This document shows, in pieces, positions 8,301-36,800 of a stretch of DNA of 64,000 nt. Made by a program: the position numbers and the translations under genes. Where the stretch lies: NCBI GenBank assembly GCA_032718475.1, contig JAUCBJ010001772.1, forward strand, positions 8,254 through 72,253, in the 5' to 3' direction. Under the pieces are notes generated by a model. That model did not search any database and was not told the DNA's origin. It worked only from the letters and a program-made list of their open reading frames with translations. Position 1 is the first letter of the stretch. Every line of letters begins with the position of its first letter. Source of the DNA: Nemertoderma westbladi (lineage: Eukaryota > Animalia > Xenacoelomorpha).

Positions 8301-11300
8301 GGTTTGCGGAAAAATATCAATTTTCGGGCCATTTTTGGAAATTACTAAAATGTGCCTTAGGGCCACCAGAGGCTTAATCCGGCACTGGTAGCTTATGAAA
8401 CTTATATATTTCTTTTTATAGGTAGCCATGACTACGACTCAGTCCGTCCTTTGGCTTACCACGACACCCACGTCATTATATTATGTTATGACGTCACCCA
8501 TCCGGATTCATTGGCAGCTTGTGAATATAGGGTGAGAGTCAAAATCTGTTATATATACCGTAATGGTTGGACGATGCTTTCCGAGGCGTCATGGTTACAA
8601 TCGTGATTGATAAGTGCGGGAGTAAGGGTCTATGCCTCGATACCAACAAATATAAATATTAAATTAATTATTATTTCCAATACGCATTTCGGGCGTCACA
8701 TCCGTCTTCAGGGCTAATTAAAAACAAAAAAGAACAAATTTAAATAAAATAATCATAATTTACTACAATATAGTACGATTATAAACTATCTATTTTACAT
8801 ATTATATTGTCGTAAATCATTTTATTTAAATTTCGGGCGTGACGCCCGAAATGCGTATTGGAAATAATAATTAATTTAAAATTTATATTTTTTGGTATCG
8901 AGGCATATATAGACCCTTACTCCCGCACTTATCATTCACGATTGTTTCAAAGTTTGTTTTTGAAGATACGTGGCGCAAATAGCAAGTGAAAAATGTGTTA
9001 CATATGAAATAAAGTTTCATTTGTTGCTTTGGTTAGAAAACACCGCCGCTGTAACCTGCTCTTTTCCCTTAATGATTTCATTTAAATTAATTTAAACCTC
9101 CCGAACACTTACCATTAATTAATTAATTATTTATTTGTAGTGCCAATAAAGTCACTAATATCAAACATTTATATCACATGTTTTTTTTCAATGTAATTGA
9201 ACTACTACTGGGTCGAGCGAACTCAGACATTGGAAATGAGATCCTTCCAGGCTTCCCGATTATTCGTTTCTCTCAAATGATTTCGTTTCTCTCAAGTTCA
9301 GTATCCATTTCAAGCTGGTCTATATCGGCGTTTGTCATGTGTTGTCTCCAGCTGATGTTTAGGGCTGCCCTTAGTAGTCTTGTGTAGCAACCATCAATTC
9401 GATGTTCAAGTGATTTAGTCAGTGTCCAGGTCTCACCCCCGTATAAAAATACACTTTCCACTGTGGCTCGAAAGAACTTAGTCTTCAGGTGCCTGGAGAG
9501 ATCTGATTTCCAGATGGTATCCATTTTTGATAGAGCTACCCAAGCCTTTGCTTTCCTAACTTCTATGTCCTTTTTGCTACTCTCTATCCATGATCCAAGG
9601 TACTGGAAGTCGTCAACCTTCCTTAGTTGATTATTATCAATGGTTGTCAAGTTTCCATCAACATTAAAGGTCATGAATTCGGTCTTTGTAGCATTTATAT
9701 GCAATCCAACGTCCTTAGCAGCCCTCTCTACTTTATTTAGTAGAAGCTGTGCATCTGCTAGCGTATTAGAGAGCAGGGCGATGTCATCCGCAAAGTCGGT
9801 GTCTGTGACTGTAGTTTCGGATATCTACTACTTCTGAGTTTTTGTAGTGTGAATCCAAGTTGTTCTCCATTTGTAGCCATCCTCATTTCATAATCTAATA
9901 CGATTATGAATAGTAATGGCGCCAATGTGTCCCTTACCTTGCAATACTCCAGCCAGGATGGAGAATAACTCAGTTTAAGTTTAAAGCAGCAATAGAAACA
10001 GTAAGTCTATAATGAACTCTAAAAACTGCATAGGACACCAAATCTCTGGATGGCACATTCACAAGAATGCTACGTCGGGTTCATTGTGTCAAGTACAATG
10101 CACACATCTCCAACCAGACACTATATAACATTGGAGGTGTCTCATTGGTTCCCCCAAGCTTGACACTAGAACAAAATCGCCTCCGCTTTGCAGGACATTG
10201 CTTTCGCCGTGAGGACCAGCCAGTGCATAATCTTGTACTTTGGCAGCCTCATGGAGTGAATAAGCATGGTGTACAGCCCATGACTTTCTTGAGACGCATC
10301 TTAAAGGACACTGGCCTTGAAAATGCGGATGATCTAGCAAATGTCAAGGGTGATAGGGAGTTGTGGCGGCGCAATTTTCACGATAAGCTGGCATCACATT
10401 CTTAATGCACGCTGCATTACTGCATGCCGATTTTGGCATTATAGTGGTGGCACAAATTTATTGTTATTCAGATAAAATTCATTTGACATTCGCAAGTTCG
10501 AGGTGATCGAATTTGTATATGTATACCCAACATTTTAATATAATATAGGCTGTCACATGTTTAAATCGTTGAAACCCCAAGTTGACAATGTTTATAAAAA
10601 TATATGGAACGAAAATAGAACCACAAATCGGCCAATGTGAAGTATACCAGGCTTTCTGGTGTTATATTTCACTTTGCAGTTTACCGGTTACCCGGTGTAA
10701 TTTTATTAAATTTCGGTCGGATTTGTTTTAGTGGTACGAAGAGATTCGTCAGTATTGTCCCAATGTTCCGATAGTTCTAGTCGGTTGTAAATCAGATTTA
10801 AAATCGGACAGAAGAACAGTCGAGTCTTTGGTGAAAAACGGCCAACTGCCAACATCGGCCAGTCAGGTGAGTCGGGTGGGACCTACCATCGGTGAGGATT
10901 AGCCAATCAGGTGAGTCGGGTGGGACCTACCATCGGTGAGGATTAGCCAATCAGGTGAGACGGGTGGGACCTACCATCGGTGAGGATTAGCCAATCAGAT
11001 GAGACGGGTGGGACCTACCATCGGTGAGGATTAGCCAGTCAGCATGCGGGTGTGGTGGTCAGCAGTTCTGATTCTGTGCAGGGATGGCATAACGAAACTA
11101 AAAAAATACATACAAATAAAAATAACGAAACGAAACGAAATAATAAGTGTTTCGATTCGTTTCGTGTTTCGTTAATTAAAAAAGTAATTAATCATAACGA
11201 TATAAATTTATTAATATATTTAAATAATTAAAAAGTTATAAATAATAATAATAATGATATTCTCCTTAATTGCTGTAATGTAAACAGAGTAAATTATTTC

Positions 11301-12682
11301 CTTCAATAAAGCAACCTTTATTACCAAGCAGTTTCCGTTATCATTGTAATGCAACAGTCTAGGGCGGACTACAGTAGAACTGTAATAAGGTACTAAAGGC
11401 AATACTGTACTGATAGTAAATTAGTACATACAATAAAACAACTGGTATACCTGGCATTTCACCTGCCGGGACATTACGAATGTTACCCCTATAGTGTATG
11501 AAACTCAAAAGGGGAATACTGCAAAACGTTTGGGGAGGGGGGGGGGGGGGGTGGTCAACACCGGACCGGTTCTACATTTTACTACAATATCATGGTGTTG
11601 ATAAAGGGGCGGTTATATTTAAAACTTTTATTTGATAAAATCAAAAATTTTAGAAGAAAACGAGACGAAACGAAAAACGAATTTAAAGTCTATGAAACGA
11701 AACGAAAATTTATAGATTGATACAAAACGAAACGAGTATTTGATCGGATTTGTAAAAACGAAACGAAATTGAAATTTCTTTCGTTTCGTTTCGTTTCGTT
11801 TTGCCATCCCTGATTCTGATTTGGTAGTCGGACAATTTAATAGTTTTGAACACTAAATATCAATCTATAGAGCATTTCACCAAATATCTGTCTGTCCGTT
11901 TCAAGGTATCTTAAGAACGGCTGAACCGATTGCCTCAATTTTTGTCAAATTGTTGTAAATTCAATGAGTCACCATCGGACCTCTGCGCCTCCGTTACCTC
12001 TGGAGTCCGTATTAACTTTCGCACTGAATGCGTTGGATGGTGACTCATACAAAAAATACCTTGAAACGGACAGACGGACGGACAGACAGGCAGACAGACA
12101 TTTGGTGAATATATTTGGCTCTATAAATTGATATTTAGTGTTCAAAACTATTAAAATGTCCGTCTACAAAATTTCGATGTGTTTTTATAAAAATTAAAGT
12201 TTGTATAGCATTTTACATGGACGCGCACATGTTTTTTTGACAACCCAATATTTTAATAAATTTTCAACGTCATTTTCATATTCGAACAAAATAATTATAA
12301 TTATATTTATATTTATGCTTTTATTTTTCGTACACGCATGGTGTTATTGTTTATTTTATTTCAATAGATATATTTACCGGTAAATAAATATTCTTCCATG
12401 CAGGGTATGCAGACTGGTATTCGAGTGAAGGCGACAGTGGCCCTAGAATGTTCCGCCATGACCGACAGTGACTCAGTAGACTCGGTATTTAGATGGGCTG
12501 CCCTCTCTGCGATCGGCCAGAAACACAGTCTGAAGAACGCCGAGTGCTCATTGCCAAGACGACGCTATTCCTTGCGAAGGTCTCCCGTAGTAACAAACTA
12601 TCAGGGGATTGGTGACGTCCCAAAGAGAAAAGCCGCGACCACAGAGGACATCAAGAAGTCGTCGTCCTGTGTCCTGCAATAA
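5338..12682 (+). CDS. Rho-family small GTPase, Rnd/RhoE-like (atypical, predicted GTPase-deficient); 5 coding exons
   Basis: join(5338..5448,6209..6296,8422..8531,10732..10866,12404..12682); all introns GT-AG and phase-consistent. Motifs: KFLLVGEEGSGKT, YAPTMFE, WDNSGSHDYDSVRPLAY, LVGCKSDL, ECSA and C-terminal CaaX CVLQ. Confidence 0.9.
5942..6031. repeat. Short palindrome/hairpin (~35-bp arms) in Rho intron 1
   Basis: TAAATGTCACCTATTGTTTTACGTGGTAACCAATGACG ... CGTCATTGGTTACCACATAAACAAGGGACATTTA. Confidence 0.65.
6467..8387. mobile_element. Non-autonomous hAT-like DNA transposon in Rho intron 2
   Basis: 14-bp TIRs CAGTGCCGGATTAA / TTAATCCGGCACTG; 8-bp TSD GTAGCTTG / GTAGCTTA (7 of 8 match); subterminal GTGCCTTAGGGCC at both ends; no transposase ORF. 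Confidence 0.85.
8597..8945. mobile_element. Inverted pair of Penelope-like terminal repeats with a hammerhead-like core
   Basis: Arms 8597-8699 and 8839-8945 are reverse complements. The minus strand reads CTGAAGA-cggatgtgacgccc-GAAA-tgcg-TA around 8681-8711. Confidence 0.55.
9200..9975 (-). mobile_element. RTE-clade LINE reverse transcriptase fragment (decayed)
   Basis: TDFADDIALL...GLHINATKTEFM...DFQYLGSWI...FRATVESVFLYGGETWTL...YTRLLRAALNISW; frameshifts upstream. Confidence 0.85.
9978..10430 (+). mobile_element. Second RTE-clade LINE 3' fragment, opposite orientation
   Basis: LDGTFTRMLRRV...RLRFAGHCFRRED..VHNLVLWQP...DRELWR is the typical RTE C-terminus. Confidence 0.75.
10858..11042 (+). 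repeat. 44-bp tandem repeat x4 copying the exon 4 end and 5' splice site of the Rho gene
   Basis: Unit GTGAGTCGGGTGGGACCTACCATCGGTGAGGATTAGCCAATCAG begins exactly at the donor (10867). The unit ends in GCCA(A/G)TCAG, matching the exon end GCCAGTCAG. Confidence 0.9.
11079..11812. mobile_element. hAT-like MITE with (AACGA)n subterminal repeats
   Basis: TIRs CAGGGATGGCA(T/A)AACGAAAC / GTTTCGTTTTGCCATCCCTG; imperfect 8-bp TSD ATTCTGTG / ATTCTGAT. Confidence 0.8.
11824..12167. mobile_element. Inverted-repeat element with Helentron/DINE-1-like (CTGT/CCGT)n microsatellite
   Basis: ~85-bp inverted arms (TTTAATAGTTTTGAACACTAAATATCAAT / ATTGATATTTAGTGTTCAAAACTATTAAA), with TCTGTCTGTCCGT and AACGGCTGAACCGATT motifs. 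Confidence 0.6.
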
Positions 12683-13267
12683 TTCTGTACCGGTAACGGT
12701 AATAGGCCTCTATCTCAATATAAACATGTTTTAATTAATTTTTAAATTCATTTTGTGCAAATTTTGATATGAATGTCAATAGAAAAGATTTTTTACAATA
12801 AATTCCCTGTTTCACCAACAGATTAATTATTATTAACATCCACGATCACCGACACAACCCCGTGAGAGCGACATCTGGGAGGGAGGGGACTTTCTAGGCT
12901 CGACGCAATACAAATTTATCCCCTCCAGGGTAAAATCGACGGAAATAACAGCTGATTACTCCCAAAAATAAAACTGTATAACCTGTTCTACATTTCCAGC
13001 CAATTTTGAATCTTACCATGGCCTACTTAAATATTTAAGTAGGCCATGATCTTACCTTCTGCAAAATTATACTGCCTATACATTTATTTAACTTATTGCT
13101 ATCAGCTTATTGTTTGATTTGATTGATTGATTGGTGAGCTCGTGTATTTGCTTAATAATATACACCCCCCCCCCCCCCCCCCCCCCCCACCGTTGGTACA
13201 CCATTTTGGTCCAAAATATGTCGAAATTATTTTTATGATCTATTATAATGCACGATTAATCAGAAAA

Positions 13268-13498
13268 CCGCTCAATAGCTCAGTTAGTTGAGCGGCGGGC
13301 CTGCAATCTATTGGTTGTAGGTTCAGCCCCGCCAGGGTCCACTCAGCCTTTCATCAACTGGGATCGATAAAATGAGTACCAGTTAAATAACTGGGAGCAA
13401 AACTTGGGATAGGAGTAGCGCCCACCCCTACCCTCGGGTAGCAGCTATCGAGAGAGGAGCCTTTGGGTGGCCTCCGGCTTCGGCCGACTGTTTGCTTG
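13268..13498 (+). mobile_element. tRNA-derived SINE with a conserved central domain
   Basis: A box TAGCTCAGTTAG; B box GGTTCAGCCCC; core ACTCAGCCTTTCATC...GATAAAATGAGTACCAG; tail GCTATCG..GAGGAGCCTTTGGGT...CCGACTGTTTGCTT shared with 51145-51370. Confidence 0.75.
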
Positions 13499-13707
13499 AT
13501 ATATAATGAAAGGTCGATTATCTCCAAATATTTTTTTTATGAAATTGTCAACTTCAAATCCCTACTACTTTTACAATTTTTGAGCAATTTGTCTGAAACA
13601 ATCCGGTGGGTGTCTACATAGCCACCCTGCATAAAAGTAGCAGACAACTTTTCGAAATTTTATGTTAATAAAATTTAATACTATTTATACTGTAACAAAC
13701 CTTAATT

Positions 13708-13727
13708 TGCAGCGCCACCTAGCGGTG
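13708..13727 (-). promoter_or_regulatory. CTCF-consensus-like site between the convergent Rho and SPAG6 genes
   Basis: TGCAGCGCCACCTAGCGGT (reverse complement ACCGCTAGGTGGCGCTGCA) resembles the bilaterian CTCF core. Motif match only. Confidence 0.4.
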
Positions 13728-14023
13728 CCGAATTATTTTCACAAAATTTCGCCTGATAGTTATGTTGCCCCTTCTTTGATCTATCATATAAAAAAACTTT
13801 CATGTGATTCGATTCAAAACTGTAAAAGCCTTAGGGTTTTAAGCGCAACCAAGTTTTTTTTATTGTTAACTAGTATTAACTAATATTAAATAGCGAAAAA
13901 AAAATTTTTCTGACCTGTCATGTAGAATAGCATCTTAGGCACCTATATTCCAAATTTTAGCCAAAACCAAACAATTTTGAAACGCTGAGAGTGATAAATC
14001 GAAGAGTTGTCCGAAAATGTTGT

Positions 14024-14059
<36 letters not shown>

Positions 14060-15835: not shown

Positions 15836-18800
15836 TCACATCGCGCTCACTGGTTGGTAGTGTTCCACACGGTCTAATAGTTCATCCGAATATCCAGGGG
15901 TGTAGTACCTAATTAATAAATAAATTAATATTACCAAATAAATAAATAGTACCAAAATAAATAAATATTTACCAAAATAAATAAATAAAGTAGTACCAAA
16001 ATAAATAAATAAATATTTACCGTAATATATAATAAATAGTTACCAAAATAAACAAATATATACGTAGTACCAAAATATATAATTAAATAGTACCAAAAAA
16101 ATAAATGAATTAGTCCGGAGTATTATCTAAAAAATTAATAAAAATAAATAGTATCGAATATGGAATAATACCAACTGAACACTAGGTCTATTATCTATAA
16201 GTTCTATCTATTATTTATAAGTATACATTATCTATGGTCTATAAGCTTTATTATTAGTAATTATTTATAGCGGTGATGCACTACAACTCTACTCACTTGA
16301 CTATCTCCTCTGGGTAGCAGTTATTTATAGCAGTGATGTACTACAACTCTACTCACTTGACTATCTCCTCCGGGTAGCAGTTATTTATATCAGTGATGCA
16401 CTACAACTCTACTCACTTGACTATCTCCTCCGGGTAGCAGTTATTTATATCAGTGATGCACTACAACTCTACTCATTGACTATCTCCTCTGGGTAGCAGT
16501 TATTTATAGCAGTGATGCACTAAACTCTACTCACTTGACTATCTCCTCCGGGTAGCAGTTATTTATATCAGTGATGCACTACAACTCTACTCACTTGACT
16601 ATCTCCTCTGGGTAGCAGTTATTTATATCAGTGATGCACTACAACTCTACTCACTTGACTATCTCCTCCGGGTAGCAGATATTTATATCAGTGATGCACT
16701 ACAACTCTACTCACTTGACTATCTCCTCCGGGTAGCAGTTATTTATATCAGTGATGCACTACAACTCTACTCACTTGACTATCTCCTCCGGGTAGCAGAT
16801 ATTTATATCAGTGATGCACTACAACTCTACTCACTTGACTATCTCCTCTGGGTAGCAGTTATTTATAGCAGTGATGCACTACAACTCTACTCACTTGACT
16901 ATCTCCTCTGGGTAGCAGTTATTTATATCAGTGATGCACTACAACTCTACTCACTTGACTATCTCCTCTGGGTAGCAGTTATTTATATCAGTGATGCACT
17001 ACAACTCTACTCACTTGACTATCTCCTCCGGGTAGCAGATATTTATATCAGTGATGCACTAAACTCTACTCACTTGACTATCTCCTCCGGGTAGCAGTTA
17101 TTTATATCAGTGATGCACTACAACTCTACTCACTTGACTATCTCCTCTGGGTAGCAGTTATTTATAGCAGTGATGCACTACAACTCTACTCACTTGACTA
17201 TCTCCTCTGGGTAGCAGTTATTTATATCAGTGATGCACTAAACTCTACTCACTTGACTATCTCCTCCGGGTAGCAGTTATTTATATCAGTGATGCACTAC
17301 AACTCTACTCACTTGACTATCTCCTCTGGGTAGCAGTTATTTATATCAGTGATGCACTACAACTCTACTCACTTGACTATCTCCTCTCGGGTAGCAGTTA
17401 TTTATAGCAGTGATGCACTACAACTCTACTCACTTGACTATCTCCTCCGGGTAGCAGATATTTATATCAGTGATGTACTACAACTCTACTCACTTGACTA
17501 TCTCCTCCGGGTAGCAGTTATTTATATCAGTGATGCACTACAACTCTACTCACTTGACTATCTCCTCCTGGGTAGCAGTTATTTATAGCAGTGATGCACT
17601 ACAACTCTACTCACTTGACTATCTCCTCCGGGTAGCAGATATTTATATCAGTGATGTACTACAACTCTACTCACTTGACTATCTCCTCTGGGTAGCAGTT
17701 ATTTATAGCAGTGATGCACTACAACTCTACTCACTTGACTATCTCCTCCTGGGTAGCAGTTATTTATATCAGTGATGCACTACAACTCTACTCACTTGAC
17801 TATCTCCTCCTGGGTAGCAGTTATTTATAGCAGTGATGCACTACAACTCTACTCACTTGACTATCTCCTCTGGGTAGCAGTTATTTATATCAGTGATGCA
17901 CTACAACTCTACTCACTTGACTATCTCCTCCGGGTAGCAGTTATTTATATCAGTGATGCACTACAACTCTACTCACTTGACTATCTCCTCTGGGTAGCAG
18001 TTATTTATATCAGTGATGCACTACAACTCTACTCACTTGACTATCTCCTCCGGGTAGCAGTTATTTATATCAGTGATGCACTACAACTCTACTCACTTGA
18101 CTATCTCCTCTGGGTAGCAGTTATTTATAGCAGTGATGCACTAAACTCTACTCACTTGACTATCTCCTCCGGGTAGCAGTTATTTATATCAGTGATGCAC
18201 TACAACTCTACTCACTTGACTATCTCCTCTGGGTAGCAGTTATTTATAGCAGTGATGCACTACAACTCTACTCACTTGACTATCTCCTCTGGGTAGCAGT
18301 TATTTATAGCAGTGATGCACTACAACTCTACTCACTTGACTATCTCCTCCGGGTAGCAGATATTTATATCAGTGATGTACTACAACTCTACTCACTTGAC
18401 TATCTCCTCCGGGTAGCAGTTATTTATATCAGTGATGTACTACAACTCTACTCATTGACTATCTCCTCTGGGTAGCAGTTATTTATAGCAGTGATGCACT
18501 ACAACTCTACTCACTTGACTATCTCCTCCGGGTAGCAGATATTTATATCAGTGATGTACTACAACTCTACTCACTTGACTATCTCCTCCGGGTAGCAGTT
18601 ATTTATATCAGTGATGTACTACAACTCTACTCACTTGACTATCTCCTCTGGGTAGCAGTTATTTATATCAGTGATGCACTAAACGCTACTCACTTGACTA
18701 TCTCCTCCGGGTAGCAGTTATTTATATCAGTGATGCACTACAACTCTACTCACTTGACTATCTCCTCTACTGGGTAGCAGTTATTTATAGCAGTGATGCA

Positions 18801-21800
18801 CTACAACTCTACTCACTTGACTATCTCCTCCGGGTAGCAGATATTTATATCAGTGATGCACTACAACTCTACTCACTTGACTATCTCCTCTACTGGGTAG
18901 CAGTTATTTATAGCAGTGATGTACTACAACTCTACTCACTTGACTATCTCCTCTGGGTAGCAGTTATTTATAGCAGTGATGTACTACAACTCTACTCACT
19001 TGACTATCTCCTCTGGGTAGCAGTTATTTATATCAGTGATGCACTACAACTCTACTCACTTGACTATCTCCTCTGGGTAGCAGTTATTTATAGCAGTGAT
19101 GCACTAAACTCTACTCACTTGACTATCTCCTCTGGGTAGCAGTTATTTATATCAGTGATGCACTAAACGCTACTCACTTGACTATCTCCTCCGGGTAGCA
19201 GTTATTTATATCAGTGATGCACTACAACTCTACTCACTTGACTATCTCCTCTGGGTAGCAGTTATTTATAGCAGTGATGTACTACAACTCTACTCACTTG
19301 ACTATCTCCTCTGGGTAGCAGTTATTTATATCAGTGATGCACTAAACGCTACTCACTTGACTATCTCCTCCGGGTAGCAGTTATTTATATCAGTGATGCA
19401 CTACAACTCTACTCACTTGACTATCTCCTCTGGGTAGCAGTTATTTATATCAGTGATGTACTACAACTCTACTCATTGACTATCTCCTCCGGGTAGCAGT
19501 TATTTATATCAGTGATGCACTACAACTCTACTCACTTGACTATCTCCTCTACTGGGTAGCAGTTATTTATAGCAGTGATGCACTACAACTCTACTCACTT
19601 GACTATCTCCTCCGGGTAGCAGATATTTATATCAGTGATGTACTACAACTCTACTCATTGACTATCTCCTCCGGGTAGCAGTTATTTATATCAGTGATGC
19701 ACTACAACTCTACTCACTTGACTATCTCCTCTACTGGGTAGCAGTTATTTATAGCAGTGATGCACTACAACTCTACTCACTTGACTATCTCCTCCGGGTA
19801 GCAGATATTTATATCAGTGATGTACTACAACTCTACTCACTTGACTATCTCCTCTGGGTAGCAGTTATTTATATCAGTGATGTACTACAACTCTACTCAT
19901 TGACTATCTCCTCCGGGTAGCAGTTATTTATATCAGTGATGCACTACAACTCTACTCACTTGACTATCTCCTCTACTGGGTAGCAGTTATTTATAGCAGT
20001 GATGCACTACAACTCTACTCACTTGACTATCTCCTCCGGGTAGCAGATATTTATATCAGTGATGTACTACAACTCTACTCACTTGACTATCTCCTCTGGG
20101 TAGCAGTTATTTATAGCAGTGATGCACTAAACTCTACTCACTTGACTATCTCCTCTGGGTAGCAGTTATTTATATCAGTGATGTACTACAACTCTACTCA
20201 TTGACTATCTCCTCCGGGTAGCAGTTATTTATATCAGTGATGCACTACAACTCTACTCACTTGACTATCTCCTCTACTGGGTAGCAGTTATTTATAGCAG
20301 TGATGCACTACAACTCTACTCACTTGACTATCTCCTCCGGGTAGCAGATATTTATATCAGTGATGTACTACAACTCTACTCACTTGACTATCTCCTCTGG
20401 GTAGCAGTTATTTATATCAGTGATGTACTACAACTCTACTCATTGACTATCTCCTCCGGGTAGCAGTTATTTATATCAGTGATGCACTACAACTCTACTC
20501 ACTTGACTATCTCCTCTACTGGGTAGCAGTTATTTATAGCAGTGATGCACTACAACTCTACTCACTTGACTATCTCCTCCGGGTAGCAGATATTTATATC
20601 AGTGATGTACTACAACTCTACTCACTTGACTATCTCCTCTGGGTAGCAGTTATTTATAGCAGTGATGCACTAAACTCTACTCACTTGACTATCTCCTCCG
20701 GGTAGCAGATATTTATATCAGTGATGTACTACAACTCTACTCACTTGACTATCTCCTCTGGGTAGCAGTTATTTATAGCAGTGATGCACTACAACTCTAC
20801 TCACTTGACTATCTCCTCTACTGGGTAGCAGTTATTTATAGCAGTGATGCACTACAACTCTACTCACTTGACTATCTCCTCCGGGTAGCAGATATTTATA
20901 TCAGTGATGTACTACAACTCTACTCACTTGACTATCTCCTCTGGGTAGCAGTTATTTATAGCAGTGATGCACTACAACTCTACTCACTTGACTATCTCCT
21001 CCGGGTAGCAGTTATTTATATCAGTGATGTACTACAACTCTACTCACTTGACTATCTCCTCTGGGTAGCAGTTATTTATATCAGTGATGCACTACAACTC
21101 TACTCACTTGACTATCTCCTCTGGGTAGCAGTTATTTATAGCAGTGATGCACTAAACTCTACTCACTTGACTATCTCCTCTGGGTAGCAGTTATTTATAT
21201 CAGTGATGCACTAAACGCTACTCACTTGACTATCTCCTCCGGGTAGCAGTTATTTATATCAGTGATGCACTACAACTCTACTCACTTGACTATCTCCTCT
21301 GGGTAGCAGTTATTTATAGCAGTGATGTACTACAACTCTACTCACTTGACTATATCCTCTGGGTAGCAGATATTTATATCAGTGATGTACTAAACTCTAC
21401 TCACTTGACTATATCCTCTGGGTAGCAGATATTTATATCAGTGATGTACTACAACTCTACTCACTTGACTATCTCCTCTGGGTAGCAGTTATTTATAGCA
21501 GTGATGTACTACAACTCTACTCACTTGACTATCTCCTCTACTGGGTAGCAGTTATTTATAGCAGTGATGCACTACAACTCTACTCACTTGACTATCTCCT
21601 CCGGGTAGCAGATATTTATATCAGTGATGTACTACAACTCTACTCACTTGACTATCTCCTCTGGGTAGCAGTTATTTATATCAGTGATGTACTACAACTC
21701 TACTCATTGACTATCTCCTCCGGGTAGCAGTTATTTATATCAGTGATGCACTACAACTCTACTCACTTGACTATCTCCTCTACTGGGTAGCAGTTATTTA

Positions 21801-24800
21801 TAGCAGTGATGCACTACAACTCTACTCACTTGACTATCTCCTCCGGGTAGCAGATATTTATATCAGTGATGTACTACAACTCTACTCACTTGACTATCTC
21901 CTCTGGGTAGCAGTTATTTATAGCAGTGATGTACTACAACTCTACTCACTTGACTATCTCCTCTGGGTAGCAGTTATTTATATCAGTGATGCACTACAAC
22001 TCTACTCACTTGACTATCTCCTCTGGGTAGCAGTTATTTATAGCAGTGATGCACTAAACTCTACTCACTTGACTATCTCCTCTGGGTAGCAGTTATTTAT
22101 ATCAGTGATGCACTAAACGCTACTCACTTGACTATCTCCTCCGGGTAGCAGTTATTTATATCAGTGATGCACTACAACTCTACTCACTTGACTATCTCCT
22201 CTGGGTAGCAGTTATTTATAGCAGTGATGTACTACAACTCTACTCACTTGACTATCTCCTCTGGGTAGCAGTTATTTATATCAGTGATGCACTAAACGCT
22301 ACTCACTTGACTATCTCCTCCGGGTAGCAGTTATTTATATCAGTGATGCACTACAACTCTACTCACTTGACTATCTCCTCTGGGTAGCAGTTATTTATAG
22401 CAGTGATGTACTACAACTCTACTCACTTGACTATCTCCTCTGGGTAGCAGTTATTTATATCAGTGATGCACTAAACGCTACTCACTTGACTATCCCCTCC
22501 GGGTAGCAGTTATTTATATCAGTGATGCACTACAACTCTACTCACTTGACTATCTCCTCTGGGTAGCAGTTATTTATAGCAGTGATGCACTACAACTCTA
22601 CTCACTTGACTATCTCCTCTGGGTAGCAGTTATTTATATCAGTGATGCACTACAACTCTACTCACTTGACTATCTCCTCTGGGTAGCAGTTATTTATATC
22701 AGTGATGCACTACAACTCTACTCACTTGACTATCTCCTCTGGGTAGCAGATATTTATATCAGTGATGTACTACAACTCTACTCACTTGACTATCTCCTCT
22801 GGGTAGCAGTTATTTATAGCAGTGATGCACTACAACTCTACTCACTTGACTATCTCCTCTGGGTAGCAGTTATTTATATCAGTGATGCACTACAACTCTA
22901 CTCACTTGACTATCTCCTCTGGGTAGCAGTTATTTATATCAGTGATGCACTAAACTCTACTCACTTGACTATCTCCTCTGGGTAGCAGTTATTTATATCA
23001 GTGATGTACTACAACTCTACTCACTTGACTATCTCCTCTGGGTAGCAGTTATTTATATCAGTGATGCACTAAACGCTACTCACTTGACTATCTCCTCCGG
23101 GTAGCAGTTATTTATATCAGTGATGCACTACAACTCTACTCACTTGACTATCTCCTCTGGGTAGCAGTTATTTATAGCAGTGATGCACTAAACTCTACTC
23201 ACTTGACTATCTCCTCTGGGTAGCAGTTATTTATATCAGTGATGCACTAAACGCTACTCACTTGACTATCTCCTCCGGGTAGCAGTTATTTATATCAGTG
23301 ATGCACTACAACTCTACTCACTTGACTATCTCCTCTGGGTAGCAGTTATTTATAGCAGTGATGTACTACAACTCTACTCACTTGACTATATCCTCTGGGT
23401 AGCAGATATTTATATCAGTGATGTACTAAACTCTACTCACTTGACTATATCCTCTGGGTAGCAGATATTTATATCAGTGATGTACTACAACTCTACTCAC
23501 TTGACTATCTCCTCTGGGTAGCAGTTATTTATAGCAGTGATGTACTACAACTCTACTCACTTGACTATCTCCTCTACTGGGTAGCAGTTATTTATAGCAG
23601 TGATGCACTACAACTCTACTCACTTGACTATCTCCTCCGGGTAGCAGATATTTATATCAGTGATGTACTACAACTCTACTCACTTGACTATCTCCTCTGG
23701 GTAGCAGTTATTTATATCAGTGATGTACTACAACTCTACTCATTGACTATCTCCTCCGGGTAGCAGTTATTTATATCAGTGATGCACTACAACTCTACTC
23801 ACTTGACTATCTCCTCTACTGGGTAGCAGTTATTTATAGCAGTGATGCACTACAACTCTACTCACTTGACTATCTCCTCCGGGTAGCAGATATTTATATC
23901 AGTGATGTACTACAACTCTACTCACTTGACTATCTCCTCTGGGTAGCAGTTATTTATAGCAGTGATGTACTACAACTCTACTCACTTGACTATCTCCTCT
24001 GGGTAGCAGTTATTTATATCAGTGATGCACTACAACTCTACTCACTTGACTATCTCCTCTGGGTAGCAGTTATTTATAGCAGTGATGCACTAAACTCTAC
24101 TCACTTGACTATCTCCTCTGGGTAGCAGTTATTTATATCAGTGATGCACTAAACGCTACTCACTTGACTATCTCCTCCGGGTAGCAGTTATTTATATCAG
24201 TGATGCACTACAACTCTACTCACTTGACTATCTCCTCTGGGTAGCAGTTATTTATAGCAGTGATGTACTACAACTCTACTCACTTGACTATCTCCTCTGG
24301 GTAGCAGTTATTTATATCAGTGATGCACTAAACGCTACTCACTTGACTATCTCCTCCGGGTAGCAGTTATTTATATCAGTGATGCACTACAACTCTACTC
24401 ACTTGACTATCTCCTCTGGGTAGCAGTTATTTATAGCAGTGATGTACTACAACTCTACTCACTTGACTATCTCCTCTGGGTAGCAGTTATTTATATCAGT
24501 GATGCACTAAACGCTACTCACTTGACTATCCCCTCCGGGTAGCAGTTATTTATATCAGTGATGCACTACAACTCTACTCACTTGACTATCTCCTCTGGGT
24601 AGCAGTTATTTATAGCAGTGATGCACTACAACTCTACTCACTTGACTATCTCCTCTGGGTAGCAGTTATTTATATCAGTGATGCACTACAACTCTACTCA
24701 CTTGACTATCTCCTCTGGGTAGCAGTTATTTATATCAGTGATGCACTACAACTCTACTCACTTGACTATCTCCTCTGGGTAGCAGATATTTATATCAGTG

Positions 24801-27800
24801 ATGTACTACAACTCTACTCACTTGACTATCTCCTCTGGGTAGCAGTTATTTATAGCAGTGATGCACTACAACTCTACTCACTTGACTATCTCCTCTGGGT
24901 AGCAGTTATTTATATCAGTGATGCACTACAACTCTACTCACTTGACTATCTCCTCTGGGTAGCAGTTATTTATATCAGTGATGCACTAAACTCTACTCAC
25001 TTGACTATCTCCTCTGGGTAGCAGTTATTTATATCAGTGATGTACTACAACTCTACTCACTTGACTATCTCCTCTGGGTAGCAGTTATTTATATCAGTGA
25101 TGCACTAAACGCTACTCACTTGACTATCTCCTCCGGGTAGCAGTTATTTATATCAGTGATGCACTACAACTCTACTCACTTGACTATCTCCTCTGGGTAG
25201 CAGTTATTTATAGCAGTGATGCACTACAACTCTACTCACTTGACTATCTCCTCTGGGTAGCAGTTATTTATATCAGTGATGCACTACAACTCTACTCACT
25301 TGACTATCTCCTCTGGGTAGCAGTTATTTATAGCAGTGATGCACTACAACTCTACTCACTTGACTATCTCCTCTGGGTAGCAGTTATTTATATCAGTGAT
25401 GCACTACAACTCTACTCACTTGACTATCTCCTCTACTGGGTAGCAGTTATTTATAGCAGTGATGTACTACAACTCTACTCACTTGACTATCTCCTCTGGG
25501 TAGCAGTTATTTATATCAGTGATGCACTAAACTCTACTCATTGACTATCTCCTCTGGGTAGCAGTTATTTATATCAGTGATGCACTACAACTCTACTCAC
25601 TTGACTATCTCCTCTGGGTAGCAGTTATTTATAGCAGTGATGCACTACAACTCTACTCACTTGACTATCTCCTCTGGGTAGCAGTTATTTATATCAGTGA
25701 TGCACTAAACTCTACTCATTGACTATCTCCTCTGGGTAGCGATTATTTATATCAGTGATGCACTACAACTCTACTCACTTGACTATCTCCTCTGGGTAGC
25801 AGTTATTTATAGCAGTGATGCACTACAACTCTACTCACTTGACTATCTCCTCTGGGTAGCAGTTATTTATATCAGTGATGCACTACAACTCTACTCACTT
25901 GACTATCTCCTCTGGGTAGCAGTTATTTATATCAGTGATGCACTAAACTCTACTCACTTGACTATCTCCTCTGGGTAGCAGTTATTTATATCAGTGATGC
26001 ACTACAACTCTACTCACTTGACTATCTCCTCTGGGTAGCAGTTATTTATAGCAGTGATGCACTACAACTCTACTCACTTGACTATCTCCTCTGGGTAGCA
26101 GTTATTTATATCAGTGATGCACTACAACTCTACTCACTTGACTATCTCCTCCGGGTAGCAGTTACTTATATCAGTGATGCACTACAACTCTACTCACTTG
26201 ACTATCTCCTCTGGGTAGCAGTTATTTATAGCAGTGATGCACTACAACTCTACTCACTTGACTATCTCCTCTGGGTAGCAGTTATTTATAGCAGTGATGC
26301 ACTACAACTCTACTCACTTGACTATCTCCTCTGGGTAGCAGTTATTTATATCAGTGATGCACTACAACTCTACTCACTTGACTATCTCCTCTGGGTAGCA
26401 GTTATTTATAGCAGTGATGTACTCAGCCAGAGCGCTCCCCGGCTCAGAGTTGATTTCCTGGACTTTCTTCAGACCCCCGCTGGTAACAAATAGCCGTCTC
26501 GCCTTTGGATCGTGTGGCAATACCTGCATTTATTATTATATAAGGGTGAGTTTTACATCTATAATAAATTTTTGTGAGACGAAGTTCTAGTGGGACATGG
26601 TTTCCTCGTGTTTCGCGCTGTTATGTACAGACAGACCGTTCTATATAATGTATTGTGTGTCAGGTAATCATCTGGGGTGAGCCACGCACCTTGCTGAACT
26701 GTGCGACAACGTGTTTGAGTATATTAGGAGGGGCGTCCCGTAACAATGGCTCCAGAGAAGGTAAGTGGACGCACTTCTGTAAAATATTCTTCAACGCCGT
26801 CTTTGACTTCTCCTATAAAACATACAAATACATATGTAGCAACAATTTAATTATTATTCTATTTTATGAACTATATTGAAAGAATAGGAATAAAATACAA
26901 TTTCCATTAATTTAATTGCTCATTACTTTTCTAGGTAAAGAAAATTCGTGTTGTAACAGTTAAGGATTTTATTGAATTCATTTTAAGGGATTTTAATATT
27001 CGCTGCTTTCAAACTACTCATAAATTTACGACTGAAAATTATAGAGATTTGATGCAAACGATTTTTTAAGCATACATAATTGCACAGCAGACAAACCCAT
27101 ATAAATAATACCATGTAAGGCAGCTAGTTGAGTTAAAGCAGTAAGCATTGTCGTCAGCGAATGACAACAGATTATTCTAAAAATGGAAAATATAAAAAAA
27201 AATTAAAATAGAAAACTAACTACAGTTTCTAACAATCTGGCGCATTTTAATTAAAAAAAAAAAAAAAAAAACACGGGACGTTATAGGAACCCTGTCGTTA
27301 GAGCCTCGGTTTTTCAATCGGAAGGTGGTGATTTCGAGTCCCACCATGGAGCAGTTAACTATAAGGAACTAGCTTCAGCCTCCCTAGCTGTGGTGGCTGG
27401 AATATGTTAGGGGAGTAAAAAATTGTTACATAATGAGAGTATTGGACCTTGGGAGTTGGTGTGGCACCATCCCTGCCTTACAGGTATCGGCCAAGAGAGA
27501 GGAGTTTATGTGTTTCAGTTCACCAATAACTATACGTTACTGGTTGCCAAGTAACCTAGACGGGTTGCTTAGCGACCTACCTGCAGATCCTCCGATGCGT
27601 CCGCCCGTAGGTAGCACGCCAGTAACCTAGGCAACACGTTAGCGGCGGCCACGGCCTTGGCGTGTTCCGGAGTATGGCGACCGATCTGTCCGAGCCCCCA
27701 AGCGGCCGATCCCTGAACATGGTCTTCAGTCTCCTCCATTAGGGTAATGGCGAGTTGTTGGACGCCCTGGAAATGATTTCACATTGCAAATAACCAAAAC

Positions 27801-30800
27801 AATAAACACCATCGACCTTACATATTAGCAAACTTACCTTCGATAAAATAAACTTACCTTAGATACAATAAACTAACCCTAGATACAATAAACTTACCTT
27901 AGATACAATAAACTTACCTTAGATACAATAAACTTACCATAGAATAAATAAACTTACCTTAGATACAATAAACTTACCTTAGATACAATAAACTTACCTT
28001 AGATACAATAAACGTACCTTAGATACAATAAACTTACCTTAGATACAATAAACTTACCTTAGATACAATAAACTTACCTTAGATACAATAAACTTACCTT
28101 AGATACAATAAACTTACCTTAGATACAATAAACTTACCTTAGATACAATAAACTTACCTAGATACAATAAACTTACCTTAGATACAATAAACTTACCTTA
28201 GATACAATAAACTTACCGTAGATACAATAAACTTACCTTAGATACAATAAACTTACCTTAGATACAATAAACTTACTTTAGATACAATAAACTTACCTTG
28301 GATAAAATAAACTTACCTTAGATACAATAAAGTTACCTTAGATACAATAAACTTACCTTAGATACAATAAACTTACCTTAGATACAATAAACTTACCTTA
28401 GATACAATAAACTTACTTTAGATACAATAACCTTACCTTAGATACAATAAACTTACCCTAGATACAATAAAGTTACCTTAGATACAATAAACTTACCTTA
28501 GATACAATAAACTTACCTTAGATACAATAAACTTACCTTAGATACAATAAACTTACTTTAGATACAATAAACTTACCTTAGATACAATAAACTTACCTTA
28601 GATACAATAAACTTACCTTAGATACAATAAACTTACCTTAGATACAATAAACTTACATTAGATACAATAAACTTAACTTAGATACAATAAACTTACCTTA
28701 GATACAATAACTTACCTTAGATACAATAAACTTACCTTAGATACAATAACTTACCTTAGATACAATAAACTTACCATAGAATGAATAAACTTACCTTAGA
28801 TACAATAAACTTACCTTAGATACAATAACTTACCTTAGATACAATAAACTTACCATAGAATGAATAAACTTACCTTAGATACAATAAACTTACCTTAGAT
28901 ACAATAAACCTCCCATAGAATAAATAAACTTACCTTAGATACAATAAACTTACCTTAGATACAATAAACTTACCATCGAATAAATAAACTTACCTTAGAT
29001 ACAATAAACTTACCATAGAATAAATAAACTTACCTTAGATACAATAAACTTACCTTAGATACAATAAACTTACCTTAGATACAATAAACTTACCTTAGAT
29101 ACAATAACTTACCTTAGATACAATAAACTTACTTTAGATACAATAAACTTACCTTAGATACAATAAACTTACCTTAGATACAATAAACTTACCTTAGATA
29201 CAATAAACTTACCTTAGATACAATAAACTTACATTAGATACAATAAACTTACCTTAGATACAATAAACTTACCTTAGATACAATAACTTACCTTAGATAC
29301 AATAAACTTACCTTAGATACAATAACTTACCATAGAATCAATAAACTTACCTTAGATACAATAAACTCACCTTAGATACAATAACTTACCTTAGATACAA
29401 TAAACTTACCATAGAATGAATAAACTTACCTTAGATACAATAAACTTACCTTAGATACAATAAACTTACCATAGAATAAATAAACTTACCTTAGATACAA
29501 TAAACTTACCATAGAATAAATAAACTTACCTTAGATACAATAAACTTACCTTAGATACAATAAACTTACTTTAGATACAATAAACTTACCCTAGATACAA
29601 TAAAGTTACCTTAGATACAATAAACTTACCTTAGATACAATAAACTTACCCTAGATACAATAAAGTTACCTTAGATACAATAACTTACCTTAGATACAAT
29701 AAACTTACCATAGAATGAATAAACTTACCTTAGATACAATAAACTTACCTTAGATACAATAAACTTACCTTAGATACAATAAACGTACCTTAGATACAAT
29801 AAACTTACGATAGAATAAATAAACTTACCTTAGATACAATAAACTTACCTTAGATACAATTAACTTACCTTAGATACAATAAACTTACCTTAGAGAAAAT
29901 AAACTTACCTTGATATACAATAAACTTACCTTAGATACAATAAACGTACCTTAGATACAATAAAGTTACCTTAGATACAATAAACTTACCTTAGATACAA
30001 TAAACTTACCCTAGATACAATAAAGTTACCTTAGATACAATAACTTACCTTAGATACAATAAACTTACCATAGAATGAATAAACTTACCTTAGATACAAT
30101 AAACTTACCTTAGATACAATAAACTTACCTTAGATACAATAAACGTACCTTAGATACAATAAACTTACGATAGAATAAATAAACTTACCTTAGATACAAT
30201 AAACTTACCTTAGATACAATTAACTTACCTTAGATACAATAAACTTACCTTAGAGAAAATAAACTTACCTTGATATACAATAAACTTACCTTAGATACAA
30301 TAAACGTACCTTAGATACAATAAACTTACCTTAGATACAATAAACTTACCTTAGATACAATAAACTTACCTTAGATACAATAAACTTACCCTAGATACAA
30401 TAAACTTACCTTAGATACAATAAACTTACCTTAGATACAATAAACGTACCTTAGATACAATAAACTTACCATAGAATAAATAAACTTACCTTAGATACAA
30501 TAAACTTACCTTTACAATTAACTTACCTTAGATACAATAAACGTACCTTAGATACAATAAACTTACCATAGAATAAATAAACTTACCTTAGATGCAATAA
30601 ACTTACCTTAGATACAATTAACTTACCTTAGATACAATAAACTTACCTTAGAGACAATAAACTTACCTTGAGATACAATAAACTTTCCTTAGATACAATA
30701 AACTTACCATAGAATAAATAAACTTACCTTAGATACAATAAACTTACCATAGAATAAATAAACTTACCTTAGATACAATAAACTTACCATAGAATAAATA

Positions 30801-33800
30801 AACTTACCTTAGATACAATAAACTTACCATAGAATAAATAAACTTACCTGAGATACAATAAACTTACCTTAGATACAATAAACTTACATTAGATACAATA
30901 AACTTACCTTAGATACAATAAACTTACCATAGAATAAATAAACTTACCTTAGATACAATAAACTTACCATAGAATAAATAAACTTACCTTAGATACAATA
31001 AACTTACCTTAGATACAATAAACTTACATTAGATACAATAAACTTACCTTAGATACAATAAACTTACCATAGAATAAATAAACTTACCTTAGATACAATA
31101 AACTTACCATAGAATAAATAAACTTACCTTAGATACAATAAACTTACCTTAGATACAATAAACTTACCTTAGATACAATAAACTTACCTTAGATACAATA
31201 AACTTACTTTAGATACAATAAACTTACCCTAGATACAATAAAGTTACCTTAGATACAATAAACTTACCTTAGATACAATAAACTTACCCTAGATACAATA
31301 AAGTTACCTTAGATACAATAACTTACCTTAGATACAATAAACTTACCTTATATACAATAAACTTACCTTAGATACAATAAACGTACCTTAGATACAATTA
31401 ACTTACCTTAGATACAATAAACTTACCCTAGATACAATAAAGTTACCTTAGATACAATAACTTACCTTAGATACAATAAACTTACCTTGGATACAATAAA
31501 CTTACCTTTGATACAATAAACTTACCTTAGATACAATAAACTTACCACAGAATAAATAAACTTACCACAGAATAAATAAACTTACCTTAGATACAATTAA
31601 CTTACCTTAGATACAATAAACTTACCATAGAATAAATAAACTTACCTTAGATACAATAAACTTACCATAGAATAAATAAACTTACTATTAGATACAATAA
31701 ACTTACCTTAGATACAATAAACTTACCTTAGATACAATTAACTTACCTTAGATACAATAAACTTACCTTAGATACAATTAACTTACCTTAGATACAATAA
31801 ACTTACCATAGAATAAATAAACTTACCTTAGATACAATAAACTTACCATAGAATAAATAAACTTACTTTTAGATACAATAAACTTACCTTAGATACAATT
31901 AACTTACCTTAGATACAATTAACTTACCTTAGATACAATAAACTTACCTTAGAGACAATAAACTTACCTTGAGATACAATAAACTTACCTTAGATACAAT
32001 AAACTTACCATAGAATAAATAAACTTACCTTAGATACAATAAACTTACCTTAGATACAATAAACTTACCTTAGATACAATAAACTTACCTTAGATACAAT
32101 AAACTTACCTTAGAATAAATAAACTTACCTTAGATACAATAAACTTACCTTGGATACAATAAACTTACCTTTGATACAATAAACTTACCTTAGATACAAT
32201 AAACTTACCACAGAATAAATAAACTTACCACAGAATAAATAAACTTACCACAGAATAAATAAACTTACCTTAGATACAATAAACTTACCTTAGATACAAT
32301 TAACTTACTTTAGATACAATAAACTTACCTTAGAGACAATAAACTTACCTTGAGATACAATAAACTTACCTTAGATACAATAAACTTACCATAGAATAAA
32401 TAAACTTACCTTAGATACAATAAACTTACCTTAGATACAATAAACTTACCTTAGATACAATAAACTTACCTTAGATACAATAAACTTACCTTAGATACAA
32501 TAAACTTACCTTAGATACAATAAACTTACCTTAGATACAATAAACTTACCTTAGAAACAATAAACGTACCTTAGATACAATAAACTTACCATAGAATAAA
32601 TAAACTTACCTTAGATACAATAAACTTACCTTAGATACAATAAACTTACCTTAGATACAATAAACTTACCATAGAATAAATAAACTTACCTTAGATACAA
32701 TAAACTTACCATAGAATAAATAAACTTACCTTAGATACAATAAACTTACCTTAGATACAATAAACTTACCTTAGATACAATTAACTTACCTTAGATACAA
32801 TAAACTTACCTTAGATACAATAAACTTACCCTAGATACAATAAAGTTACCTTAGATACAATAAACTTACCTTAGATACAATACACTTACCATAGATACAA
32901 TAAATTACCTTAGATTCAATAAACTTACTTTAGATACAATAACAGCCATGGATAGATTCTCAGAGTGAGCGGCTACGTATCCTAGCAACATGACTCCCGG
33001 CAACCTTACGTTGCCCTTGGTGTCTCCTATGAAGTCTACGATAGCGGCCACCCCTCCCGCGTTAACGACTAGTTGGGCCAACTCCGGTGTGTGTTTAGCA
33101 ATCTCTCGGATGAGCGTAGCGACGTTCTTCTTAACGTAGTCGTCCGGGTCTCTCAGACAGGTCAGTACGGCCGGGAAGATCTCGGCCTCCACCACCATCT
33201 CGGCTAGGTCTACCGAATGTTTGGCGATCTGCGACAGCGCTGAGAAAACTTGGCGCTGAAATGGGAGACAGAAATATTAACGGATTAGAGGATATGGAGA
33301 CTTAATATATTATCAACACATATGAGAGTTTCGGTGGTAAACTATTAATTGCAATGAGTAAATTAGGACGTATTTATTAGTTATACTGTAGGTGTATAAA
33401 GTTAAAGTTCATAAATAACATAAAGTAATTTTCTTTATTGTTTGTCAATTTATTCAGAATGTTAATTAATCAATTTCTCAAGTAAATAATATAGAAAACA
33501 AATAGCATTTTTCCTTACGATGCCTCGAAGTATAATTAACTTCGATCGTTACGCTCGCGTAGCAGAAGCTGCGGGAATATCAGCCATTCTAAGGAAAATA
33601 AGTTCCCTTTATTTCACTTCCTTCCATATATTTCTAGGAAAGTCCAATAATACTTATTCCTGAATCATCGCTTATAAAATAATATATATTATTAATATTA
33701 ATATTATAGTACGGAATAATATTATTAAGATACAACGATTAGGCCTACACAGTGAAACATAATTACAAAACGCTTCTCATGAAAAAGTAATTAATTATCT

Positions 33801-36800
33801 TACATTAAATAAATAATCGATATTTTTTATTCATATTATTAGAATTATTATAAGCCAACGTTTATCTTACTTCAATATTACAAATATTTGTGCAGCATCA
33901 CGCCTTTACTGCGATTAAGTAGATGTACTTAGGACTAAGTTAAGTTAAATACGAAATCTGGTTAATAATATAAATTAGATTTCGTTTTTCTACTAGTTTG
34001 CCAACCTTTAGCTTTTCGTCGTTATTCAATATCATCTGGGCGAGATGGGCGACCGCGCCCGCGTCCACCACGGTCTGGGCGAGTTCGGGCGAATGTTTCG
34101 CTATATCGCTCACGCTGCTCGCTGCGATCCTCTTCAACCCCAACTCCGGTTCCTGGATACACAACACTAACAGCGGCACGGCGCCGGCGTCCACTACAGC
34201 CTGGGCCAGTTCCGCGTTGTGTCTGGAAAGAAATACAAACTCAAATAAATTTTAACAAATATTGTATTGAAACGTAATTAAATTATAGTGGAGTTATTCA
34301 ATAACTATTTAATAATATCTGTTAATTAAGATTGCCTTTAAGATTGATTACTCCCAAAAATAAAACTGTAACCTGTTCTATTGACTTCAGTTTCTAGTTT
34401 TGGATAAAATAACGTGCCACTGTAACCTGCTCCCTTCCTTCCCTATTGGTATCTAACTTTGAGACGAGAAATGAATTCGCCGAGATGGGATTTGATTGGG
34501 GGTTGATGGTAACTTAGAAACACACTACTTACCTAGCGACGTAACCTAGTAACGGACAACTTACCTAGCACGTAACCTAGTTACAGACAACTTACCTAGC
34601 GACGTAACCTAGTTACAGACAACTTATCTAGCGACGTAACCTAGTTACAGACAACTTACCTAGCGACGTAACCTAGTAACAGACAACTTACCTAGCGACG
34701 TAACCTAGTAACAGACAACTTACCTAGCACGTAACCTAGTTACAGACAACTTACCTAGCGACGTAACCTAGTTACAGACAACTTACCTAGCGACGTAACC
34801 CAAAGCCCATGCGGCGGACTCCTTAACCGAAGGATCGAATTCTTCCAGACATATAACCAAGGCGTCCAGAGCCCCGCAGTCCACCACTGATTGGGCCAAC
34901 TCCGGACTGTGTCGCGCCACCGCGCGGAGAACAAACGCAGCCGCTTTCTTATAGAATCGCTATGAATCGAAAAAAATGAGTTACTAATAAAATAAAGCAG
35001 TACTTTATAGCACGGTAACGGGATATAAACAACAACTTTTTACAACAGTAATTATGATACTAAGTTGCGAAATTAATTAAATAAATAAAAGTTACAATAT
35101 AATACGTTAACAAAAAGTAAGTTAAGTTATATAATTACACCGATTTGCAATATTTAAATCCAAATATAATAGGTATAATAGTTAAAACAAATGACTTACA
35201 TTTTGTTCGGCCAACGAGTAAACTAATTGAGGTAAAATATCACCCTTGACTACAGCTTCGGCGAGATCGTCGTTGTGATTGGCTAGACGTCCCAATGCGA
35301 GGGCAGCCGTCTGCTGTATGGTTGGCACGATGTCCAATAGGAGAGGCCGAAGTAATGACATGACCCCGGCATTCTGTAGAGTTTCGATATTCTGGGGTCG
35401 GGTCGCCAATTCAGCGACCGTTTGTACGAATGTTGTCCGCGCTTTCTGGTATTCCTCAAACGCTGCGTGTTGGAAGGAATAGTATATATTGTGTTAGACC
35501 TAGGAATTTTAAATGTACTAAATAACTATTAGCATTGGATTAAAATTGAAAACAGATTAAATATAGAAAATTAGAAATTTGACTGAAACGAAAGAGAACG
35601 ATTTAAATGGAAGACAGAGAAAAGAGAATAGCTGGAATTACAGTCTTAGTACGAAATAAATCAATGCTAAATCTACCAAAACAACAACAACTGGTGAACT
35701 AAATAATTACCAATCGATTTAATGACACTAATGAGGTCTGTCAGTGTAGTTAATATGTAATAATTATTACCTTTAATTATTGGTCGATCTTTCTTTTTAA
35801 GTTCAAAATCCCCCCTTGGAACTTCCATCGTGTGAGAGGAAATTCCTGGGCTTGAGTTTTAGTAAAATGTTTGTAATTTTTGGATGGAATTGCAATTGAC
35901 TTTGTATACAAGTACCGTAATGGAATCGGACGCAAACAATATCTGTTAGTAGGTCAATTAGAATAACCTAAAATACAACACATAACATTTACGTTTATTA
36001 AAAAGAAATAGCAAATAAAATCATTAAAGCATTTTTAAACCAAATCATGCAGAAGTTAAATATAAAACTACCGTAGCAACAAACTAAACTATATTAAAGG
36101 CAAACAGTTAATATCGAAGATTTTAAGTAAAATATTTAAAGCGTCTTGGTAAATTACTCCTAAAATGTAGACTACAACGGTCGTAGATGTATAGACACGA
36201 CGTAGGCCCACTTCCGGCCATTGACGTTTTGCAAGCCAAAGGGCAGGAAGTCTCAACCCGCTGCTGCCGTAGTTAGGCAACCCCATGTGATAATTGTTGG
36301 AATAAACACACACAAATATAGTATATTAAGAACAAACGAAAATTGGAAAAAGTAATATTAGACAAAAAGACGGCAGAACAAGCTAACCAACTACAACAGT
36401 AATAACAGTCCTGATTCATAAATAGTTGGTCAAACTTAAATTGTTGCCACAAAAAAAAAGAGTAAAGTTTTCAACGGCGGTTAGGTCAGGGTTTACGCAC
36501 AAAGTCTGACAACTTATTTGCAGCGCGGTCCCCCCAGAACTATACTCCCGAGAGGAAACTTCCTTACTCATTTAGCTACTATTTAAGGATGCAAGGCGCC
36601 GCCCTGGCTAGTCCCTTTAAATCATTCCTGTCGAATCGACAACTGCCCTCACATAAGGAGATAGAACCCACGACCTCCGGAGAGATGTAAATTCAATGCA
36701 ACGGATTTAATCACTACGTTTAATCGGTATTTGCATGTAATTCATTGGTATTTCAATCAACTGTCTAAATATAAGAAAATTTATCAACTGGTGACATGGC

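Follow-up and report, generated by a model that had tools for sequence, protein, structure and literature searches.

Tandem copies of exon edges in a SPAG6 gene and a neighbouring Rho-like gene of Nemertoderma westbladi: probable "mirage" minisatellites

How can an intron fill with hundreds of copies of its own splice junction while the gene around it keeps an intact reading frame? This question is raised by a 64,000-nucleotide stretch of the genome of the xenacoelomorph Nemertoderma westbladi (assembly GCA_032718475.1, contig JAUCBJ010001772.1, positions 8,254 to 72,253 of the forward strand), referred to here as the window. Two neighbouring genes, one for a Rho-like small GTPase and one for SPAG6/PF16, contain four minisatellite arrays that start on a 5' splice site (donor), and a fifth array ends on a 3' splice site (acceptor) of SPAG6. 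The arrays are here taken to be "mirage" minisatellites, i.e., duplications of exon-intron junctions that were amplified like a satellite and are tolerated because splicing takes the first donor or the last acceptor. A probability of about 0.65 is assigned to this explanation.

The arrays were located with Tandem Repeats Finder over the window. The program agrees with the first-pass annotation, a reading of the sequence that preceded this analysis, on four arrays of unrelated sequence and on their places (Table 1). The real donors (10866/67 in Rho intron 4, and 34787/86, 32929/28 and 26378/77 in SPAG6 introns 3, 5 and 8) all fall within the first unit of their array (4/4), and most later units re-create the donor, both as first described. 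The Rho array runs from the real donor through two intact copies and one copy with GT changed to AT to a closing 9-nt copy of the exon tail, so that GT is kept in two of three copies. In the 32-bp array, seven of the eight downstream units are intact spare donors and one has lost its GT. The 60-bp array comprises 169 units, of which 157 of the 168 downstream ones carry an intact spare donor and 11 have lost the G. The 255 units of the 20-bp array fall into 42 types, contain GT in 252 cases, and provide 232 spare donors of the form GT(A/G)AG. Counted by this form, SPAG6 has 396 spare donors (7 + 232 + 157), next to two true copies in Rho. The earlier figure of more than 400 decoy donors is reached when any retained GT is counted (about 415), but not under the stricter definition.

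Table 1. Host genes and junction arrays in the window (position 1 is the first nucleotide of the window).
Feature	Position	Strand	Copies	Structure
Rho-like small GTPase gene (predicted model)	5338..12682	+		exons 5338-5448, 6209-6296, 8422-8531, 10732-10866, 12404-12682
SPAG6/PF16 gene	15836..37444	-		exons 37444-37420, 35462-35200, 34959-34787, 34222-34006, 33255-32929, 27766-27581, 26812-26690, 26523-26378, 15908-15836
44-bp donor array, Rho intron 4	10858-11042	+	4.2	unit of 9 nt exon tail + 35 nt intron head
32-bp donor array, SPAG6 intron 3	34509-34800	-	9.2	unit of 13 nt exon tail + 19 nt intron head
20-bp donor array, SPAG6 intron 5	27830-32942	-	256.1	unit of 12 nt exon tail + 8 nt intron head
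60-bp donor array, SPAG6 intron 8	16261-26423	-	169.4	unit of 42 nt exon tail + 18 nt intron head
Acceptor array, SPAG6 intron 8	15902..16110	-		about 23-bp degenerate copies of U-rich tail + exon 9 head

The units differ in detail. AG|GT is contained in the 20-, 32- and 44-bp units and is absent from the 60-bp unit. A partial copy of the exon tail closes the Rho, 32-bp and 60-bp arrays (9, 5 and about 18 nt, respectively). Among the exon-tail copies of the Rho array, the first and the last share one base that has no counterpart in the middle three. Matches within the arrays reach 91-97%. Higher-order runs of 34 units (60-bp array) and of 17 units are repeated exactly, and together with the 32-42 unit types they indicate satellite turnover.

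The genes that host the arrays appear to be intact. The five-exon model of the Rho-like gene encodes 240 aa with the C-terminus CVLQ, and Pfam Ras matches are found in four of its five exons, two of them under the curated cut-off. The nine-exon SPAG6 model has an open frame of 510 aa without a stop and GT-AG borders in 8/8 introns, which upholds the statement that the coding sequence has been preserved. SPAG6 exons 5 and 8 align with solved SPAG6/PF16 chains to their final residues; the array units were thus copied from conserved coding sequence. The closest named match to exon 5 is 89% identical. As previously estimated, the two large arrays account for most of the 21.6-kb SPAG6 coding span (70%). 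If each array were reduced to a single unit, about 70 and 200 nt would remain of introns 5 and 8.

The locus is present in five sequencing runs of three studies, and four (X1-X4) of the six runs listed were compared on two stretches. X4 is not recorded as RNA, and it is read here as a transcript assembly on account of a 2266-nt contig that joins exons. Seven of the eight SPAG6 junctions (introns 2-8) are present in this contig. It skips introns 2, 3, 4, 6 and 7 at the modelled sites and, judging from record positions and loose-end letters, passes from exon 5 to exon 6 and from exon 8 to exon 9 without extra bases. The first donor is therefore used in all three SPAG6 array introns, as the proposed first-donor rule demands, and the last acceptor copy is used in intron 8.

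At window position 32929, the final base of exon 5, a synonymous A/G variant was noticed. The window and X1 carry the A, which gives the weaker donor (AAA), while in the X4 contig the last three bases of exon 5 are AAG, the form that prevails among the array units. The A is probably younger than the 20-bp array. By a count of identities without G-U pairs, 147 of the 232 spare donors in this array are nearer to the U1 consensus than the real AAA|GTAAGT of the window. An early stop follows every later donor tested. In 11 of the 12 SPAG6 and Rho extensions that end at or near a GT or AT copy, this stop lies more than 50 nt upstream of the last junction; in the Rho +44 extension it lies only 8 nt upstream. 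Two other uses of the copies were considered and rejected: a pseudo-exon within a unit fails on the intron parts, which measure 8-35 nt, and an in-frame "dial" fails on the 60-bp unit, which preserves the frame yet stops at the first codon.

The fifth array was absent from the earlier list. It lies at the 3' end of SPAG6 intron 8, and the real junction is its final unit. All eight upstream copies carry TG or CG where the real junction has AG, and the AG-free zone before this acceptor extends over 216 nt, compared with 15-50 nt at the other 11 acceptors. In the window's minus strand, all five occurrences of the 7-mer core lie within this array. The acceptor array mirrors the donor arrays, which suggests that duplication strikes exon edges generally and that the polarity of splicing decides which copies survive.

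Four of the five features of mirages are thus found here, namely a unit that spans the boundary, partial retention of the signals, regular splicing (SPAG6, in one contig), and concerted evolution. A possible course of events begins with the observed anatomy, in which each unit consists of a conserved exon edge and the adjoining intron. Short direct repeats at the ends of a 20-60 bp segment would help it to duplicate over the junction, and the array would then grow like any satellite by slippage and unequal exchange, as the higher-order repeats suggest. The upstream-most donor continues to be taken, as seen in the one SPAG6 contig and in experiments on human F7. Going by the computed stops, use of a later donor would lead to premature termination, and most errors would be cleared by nonsense-mediated decay. 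Acceptor copies lie upstream of the real site and may persist best after loss of their AG. The spare donors are about as variable as other unit positions, and the arrays are likely to be neutral and tolerated.

A mutational process focused on splice junctions, one of two causes first proposed, remains plausible and is strengthened by the acceptor array. The likeliest cause of the junction preference may be that strand exchange between haplotypes stalls and slips where a conserved exon gives way to a divergent intron. In one run-comparison stretch, 17 of the 24 listed letter differences lie in SPAG6 intron 6 and none in exons 6-8.

Several observations weigh against the mirage explanation or parts of it. 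In the other run-comparison stretch, two of the seven listed differences are exonic, and intron 4 has only two plus one small insertion. The end homology of the 20-bp array amounts to only 2-3 nt. The acceptor array is a single AT-rich case, and its 12/14 match to the junction word has a background rate of 1.3% on its own. The RNA evidence consists of one contig from one sample, and contigs lose rare isoforms. The observation of first-donor use covers SPAG6, in an animal whose arrays may differ in length, and it concerns the AAG allele rather than the AAA haplotype of the window with its 147 better copies. Finally, the enrichment of arrays at junctions, described below, comes from one selected window.

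The relation of the arrays to intron gain was analysed by comparison with 80 related SPAG6 loci, 26 of which gave intron calls; most others look like transcripts. The position of intron 5 (c.1005) is common to L018, L019, L020 and L074, and that of intron 8 (c.1460) to L018 and L019, which are near-duplicates of each other. Distant relatives thus have introns at both positions, so that the large arrays grew in introns of old standing, and the idea that introns 5 and 8 were gained through them is not supported. Two of the eight SPAG6 introns are displaced. Intron 3 (34786-34223) lies at c.461, 11 nt upstream of c.472, the position in all four loci with a nearby intron (L018, L019, L027 and L074). 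Intron 6 (27580-26813) lies 6 nt upstream of the intron of L074. Both follow directly after an exonic AG and form candidate near-intron pairs with the introns of the relatives. An exonic AG at the new position is predicted by the duplication route to intron gain, according to the available text of PMC2891723 and PMC3087553. No remnant that would tie the shift of intron 3 or 6 to a mirage was seen, and intron 3, though at a new position, is not a duplicate of a whole exon segment. In the Tandem Repeats Finder rows of the related SPAG6 loci no long donor array was seen, and as short-read contigs break at arrays, these loci do not serve as a control.

A wider claim can be built on these shifts. 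Exon edges, donors and acceptors alike, would be duplication hotspots throughout the genome, with the polarity of splicing as the only filter, inflating introns of 70-200 nt to 5-10 kb, relocating introns to nearby exonic AGs, and acting as a main engine of gene-structure change in the lineage. This extension is regarded as doubtful.

Two further sequences in the displaced introns were recorded. Intron 3 contains, at 34345-34474, a short fragment of a very high-copy dispersed repeat, whose contig depths add up to more than 1e5 in each of three DNA runs. The head of intron 6 (27580-27540, minus strand) has two GTY..GCAAC motifs, reminiscent of RFX X-boxes, and a 10-nt match to part of exon 6.

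The association with junctions could also be a product of chance and filtering. Arrays would then arise anywhere in a repeat-rich, compact genome without bias at birth, those inside exons would be purged, and the window would have been picked after the fact. It was indeed selected post hoc for this pattern, so the P values given here overstate the case. Six of the 11 sizeable arrays in the window lie away from any modelled junction, and introns 5 and 8 would be short without their arrays. Nevertheless, at four of 12 donors the intron side holds a 13-14/14 match to the donor's own junction word, compared with a background of 0.4% of 14,854 positions. With arrays collapsed, 0.11 of the 11 arrays would be expected to overlap a donor window-wide (P(>=4) = 5e-6), and 0.16-0.20 within the two genes (P = 3-5e-5). 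Even with exons excluded from the target, 0.20 arrays are expected and four observed. The probability that all five arrays of the two genes sit on a junction is about 2e-6, and such arrays have been reported repeatedly from amphioxus genes. An origin without birth bias is therefore considered unlikely. One argument of the first-pass annotation does not enter this comparison. The arrays do run only into the intron, with no near-exact exon-side copy of the junction word at any of 24 junctions, but any duplication across a used first donor looks intron-only, which deprives the observation of independent weight.

The main alternative to haplotype divergence places the cause of the births in transcription or splicing itself, with polymerase pausing, R-loops or breaks at the splice sites of germline-expressed genes focusing slippage. 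Pausing and R-loops may lead to duplication. SPAG6 is a flagellar gene and hosts four of the five arrays, and donor arrays exceed acceptor arrays four to one. This excess is explained equally well by a harsher filter on acceptor copies, and a dependence of array births on transcription or splicing is considered unlikely.

The second cause first proposed was selection for U1-site arrays. Their benefit would lie in the suppression of premature polyadenylation or in stronger exon definition. Exon inclusion can be aided by U1 that binds downstream of a donor (available text of PMC4822034 and PMC3349419), and U1 suppresses early polyadenylation (available text of PMC3826338). The near-complete retention of GT in the 20-bp array and the weaker exon 5 donor of the window haplotype are compatible with such a role. 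The nine U1 positions, however, vary like the rest of the unit, with mean differences of 4.8 vs 3.1% in the 20-bp, 1.5 vs 3.3% in the 60-bp, and 1.4 vs 3.3% in the 32-bp array, a weak test because array units are not independent. The number of variant kinds per U1 position equals or exceeds that of the rest of the unit, and some units of all four arrays have lost the donor G. Sense AATAAA or ATTAAA is absent from the arrays and occurs zero times and once in introns 5 and 8, compared with 7-10 occurrences in array-free 2-kb introns, and the two host introns would be short without their arrays. The acceptor array, moreover, is no U1 design. Selection for U1 arrays is not supported and is judged very unlikely. 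The consensus unit of the 20-bp array (27830-32942) has an AATAAA on its antisense strand, with none on the sense strand of the array. Arrays with poly(A) signals in sense orientation may be purged.

The arrays are not confined to the assembly; their lengths are given as assembled. Contigs made of 20- and 60-bp units are covered far more deeply than the flanks in all three DNA runs (X1, X2 and X3, from two studies), so that the assembly artefact named as a possible refutation was not borne out. An X2 contig links the 60-bp unit to the distal flank, and in X2 and X3 a 62-nt contig crosses the first 32-bp repeat junction. Both runs are without cover at 34562-34737; this gap might reflect a shorter 32-bp allele, though it is no proof of one. 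Array depths differ among the runs, and an estimate of copy number from the depth of these short-read contigs was rejected, as depth over the 20-bp array varies about 40-fold between two runs of one sample. Neither large array is spanned by a long read or contig, X1 may be the source of the assembly, and a 2-kb block within the 60-bp array is repeated exactly, but in view of the unit and junction contigs an artefact is scarcely credible, even if exact lengths could still be off.

The window contains further arrays and genes. A 54-bp array of 28.5 copies at 49501-51105, away from modelled splice junctions, derives from a dispersed repeat that has single-copy relatives at 2945, 10632 and 40199; the unamplified relative at 2945-3008 is flanked by a 7-nt direct repeat. 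The genome amplifies non-splice segments as well. At 51749-57531, upstream of an SLC38A9-like gene, lies a 59-bp array of 98 copies that are 98% alike. Its minus-strand units resemble an acceptor, with a pyrimidine tract ending in TAG, and no exon was found there. A 15-bp array (27 copies) at 528-1084, shortly downstream of the coding stretch 1-390, precedes further copies of its unit in inverted and more degenerate form. The SLC38A9-like transporter itself (58397-60133, plus strand) is encoded in a single uninterrupted frame of 578 aa, possibly as a result of intron loss or as a retrocopy. Its identity does not exceed 48% among the relatives listed and is 45% to Branchiostoma proteins. On the minus strand, an open frame of 343 aa with NHL repeat matches occupies 38813-39844.

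Such arrays enlarge introns and can lead gene annotation astray. A genome with arrays on a third of the donors of one window could decide why repeats arise at splice junctions. In addition, the 255-copy array, combined with a natural A/G variant at the last exon base, puts first-come donor choice to an extreme natural test. In the open-access texts searched, no genome-wide count of junction-spanning arrays was found, and the accessible parts of PMC10078293 and PMC12783039 contain nothing on such arrays. To this extent the first-pass annotation was right to regard the system as undescribed, but the arrays as such have been described both in amphioxus and in human genes.

Human minisatellites that span a donor are known from F7 IVS7 (37 bp, 5-9 copies), IFI6/6-16, CBS IVS13, LMNB2 and PDGF. 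According to the part of PMC1557585 available, F7 minigenes select the most upstream donor even over stronger pseudo-sites, while 6-16 and CBS leak to the next two donor copies. The likeness to SPAG6 lies in a first unit over the exon-intron junction, identical pseudo-donors directly after it, and use of the upstream-most site, here seen in one contig. The human cases described there have one array per gene with at most about 25 copies, unlike the several arrays of SPAG6.

The amphioxus mirages were described in Adh3, the globins BflGb6 and BflGb9, troponin C and PGBD5. As far as the available text of PMC3087553 and PMC3902484 goes, they are tandem copies of 5' and 3' exon boundaries with units of 10-160 bp, many of which keep GT or AG, and splicing is normal. 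They undergo concerted evolution with less homogenised ends, and it has been proposed that introns reach new positions through them; the accessible text on amphioxus describes their origin as unclear. The arrays of N. westbladi resemble them in the copying of boundaries at both edges, the partial retention of GT, and, in the one SPAG6 contig, normal splicing. The difference lies in scale, since the available text gives 3-6 units for BflGb6, compared with up to 169-255 copies over 5-10 kb here, and in the presence of four arrays within one gene. In contrast to intron gain by tandem duplication, the two largest arrays occupy introns at conserved positions. The arrays belong to the known mirage class, to which they add a new size and density as well as two SPAG6 introns displaced by 6-11 nt.

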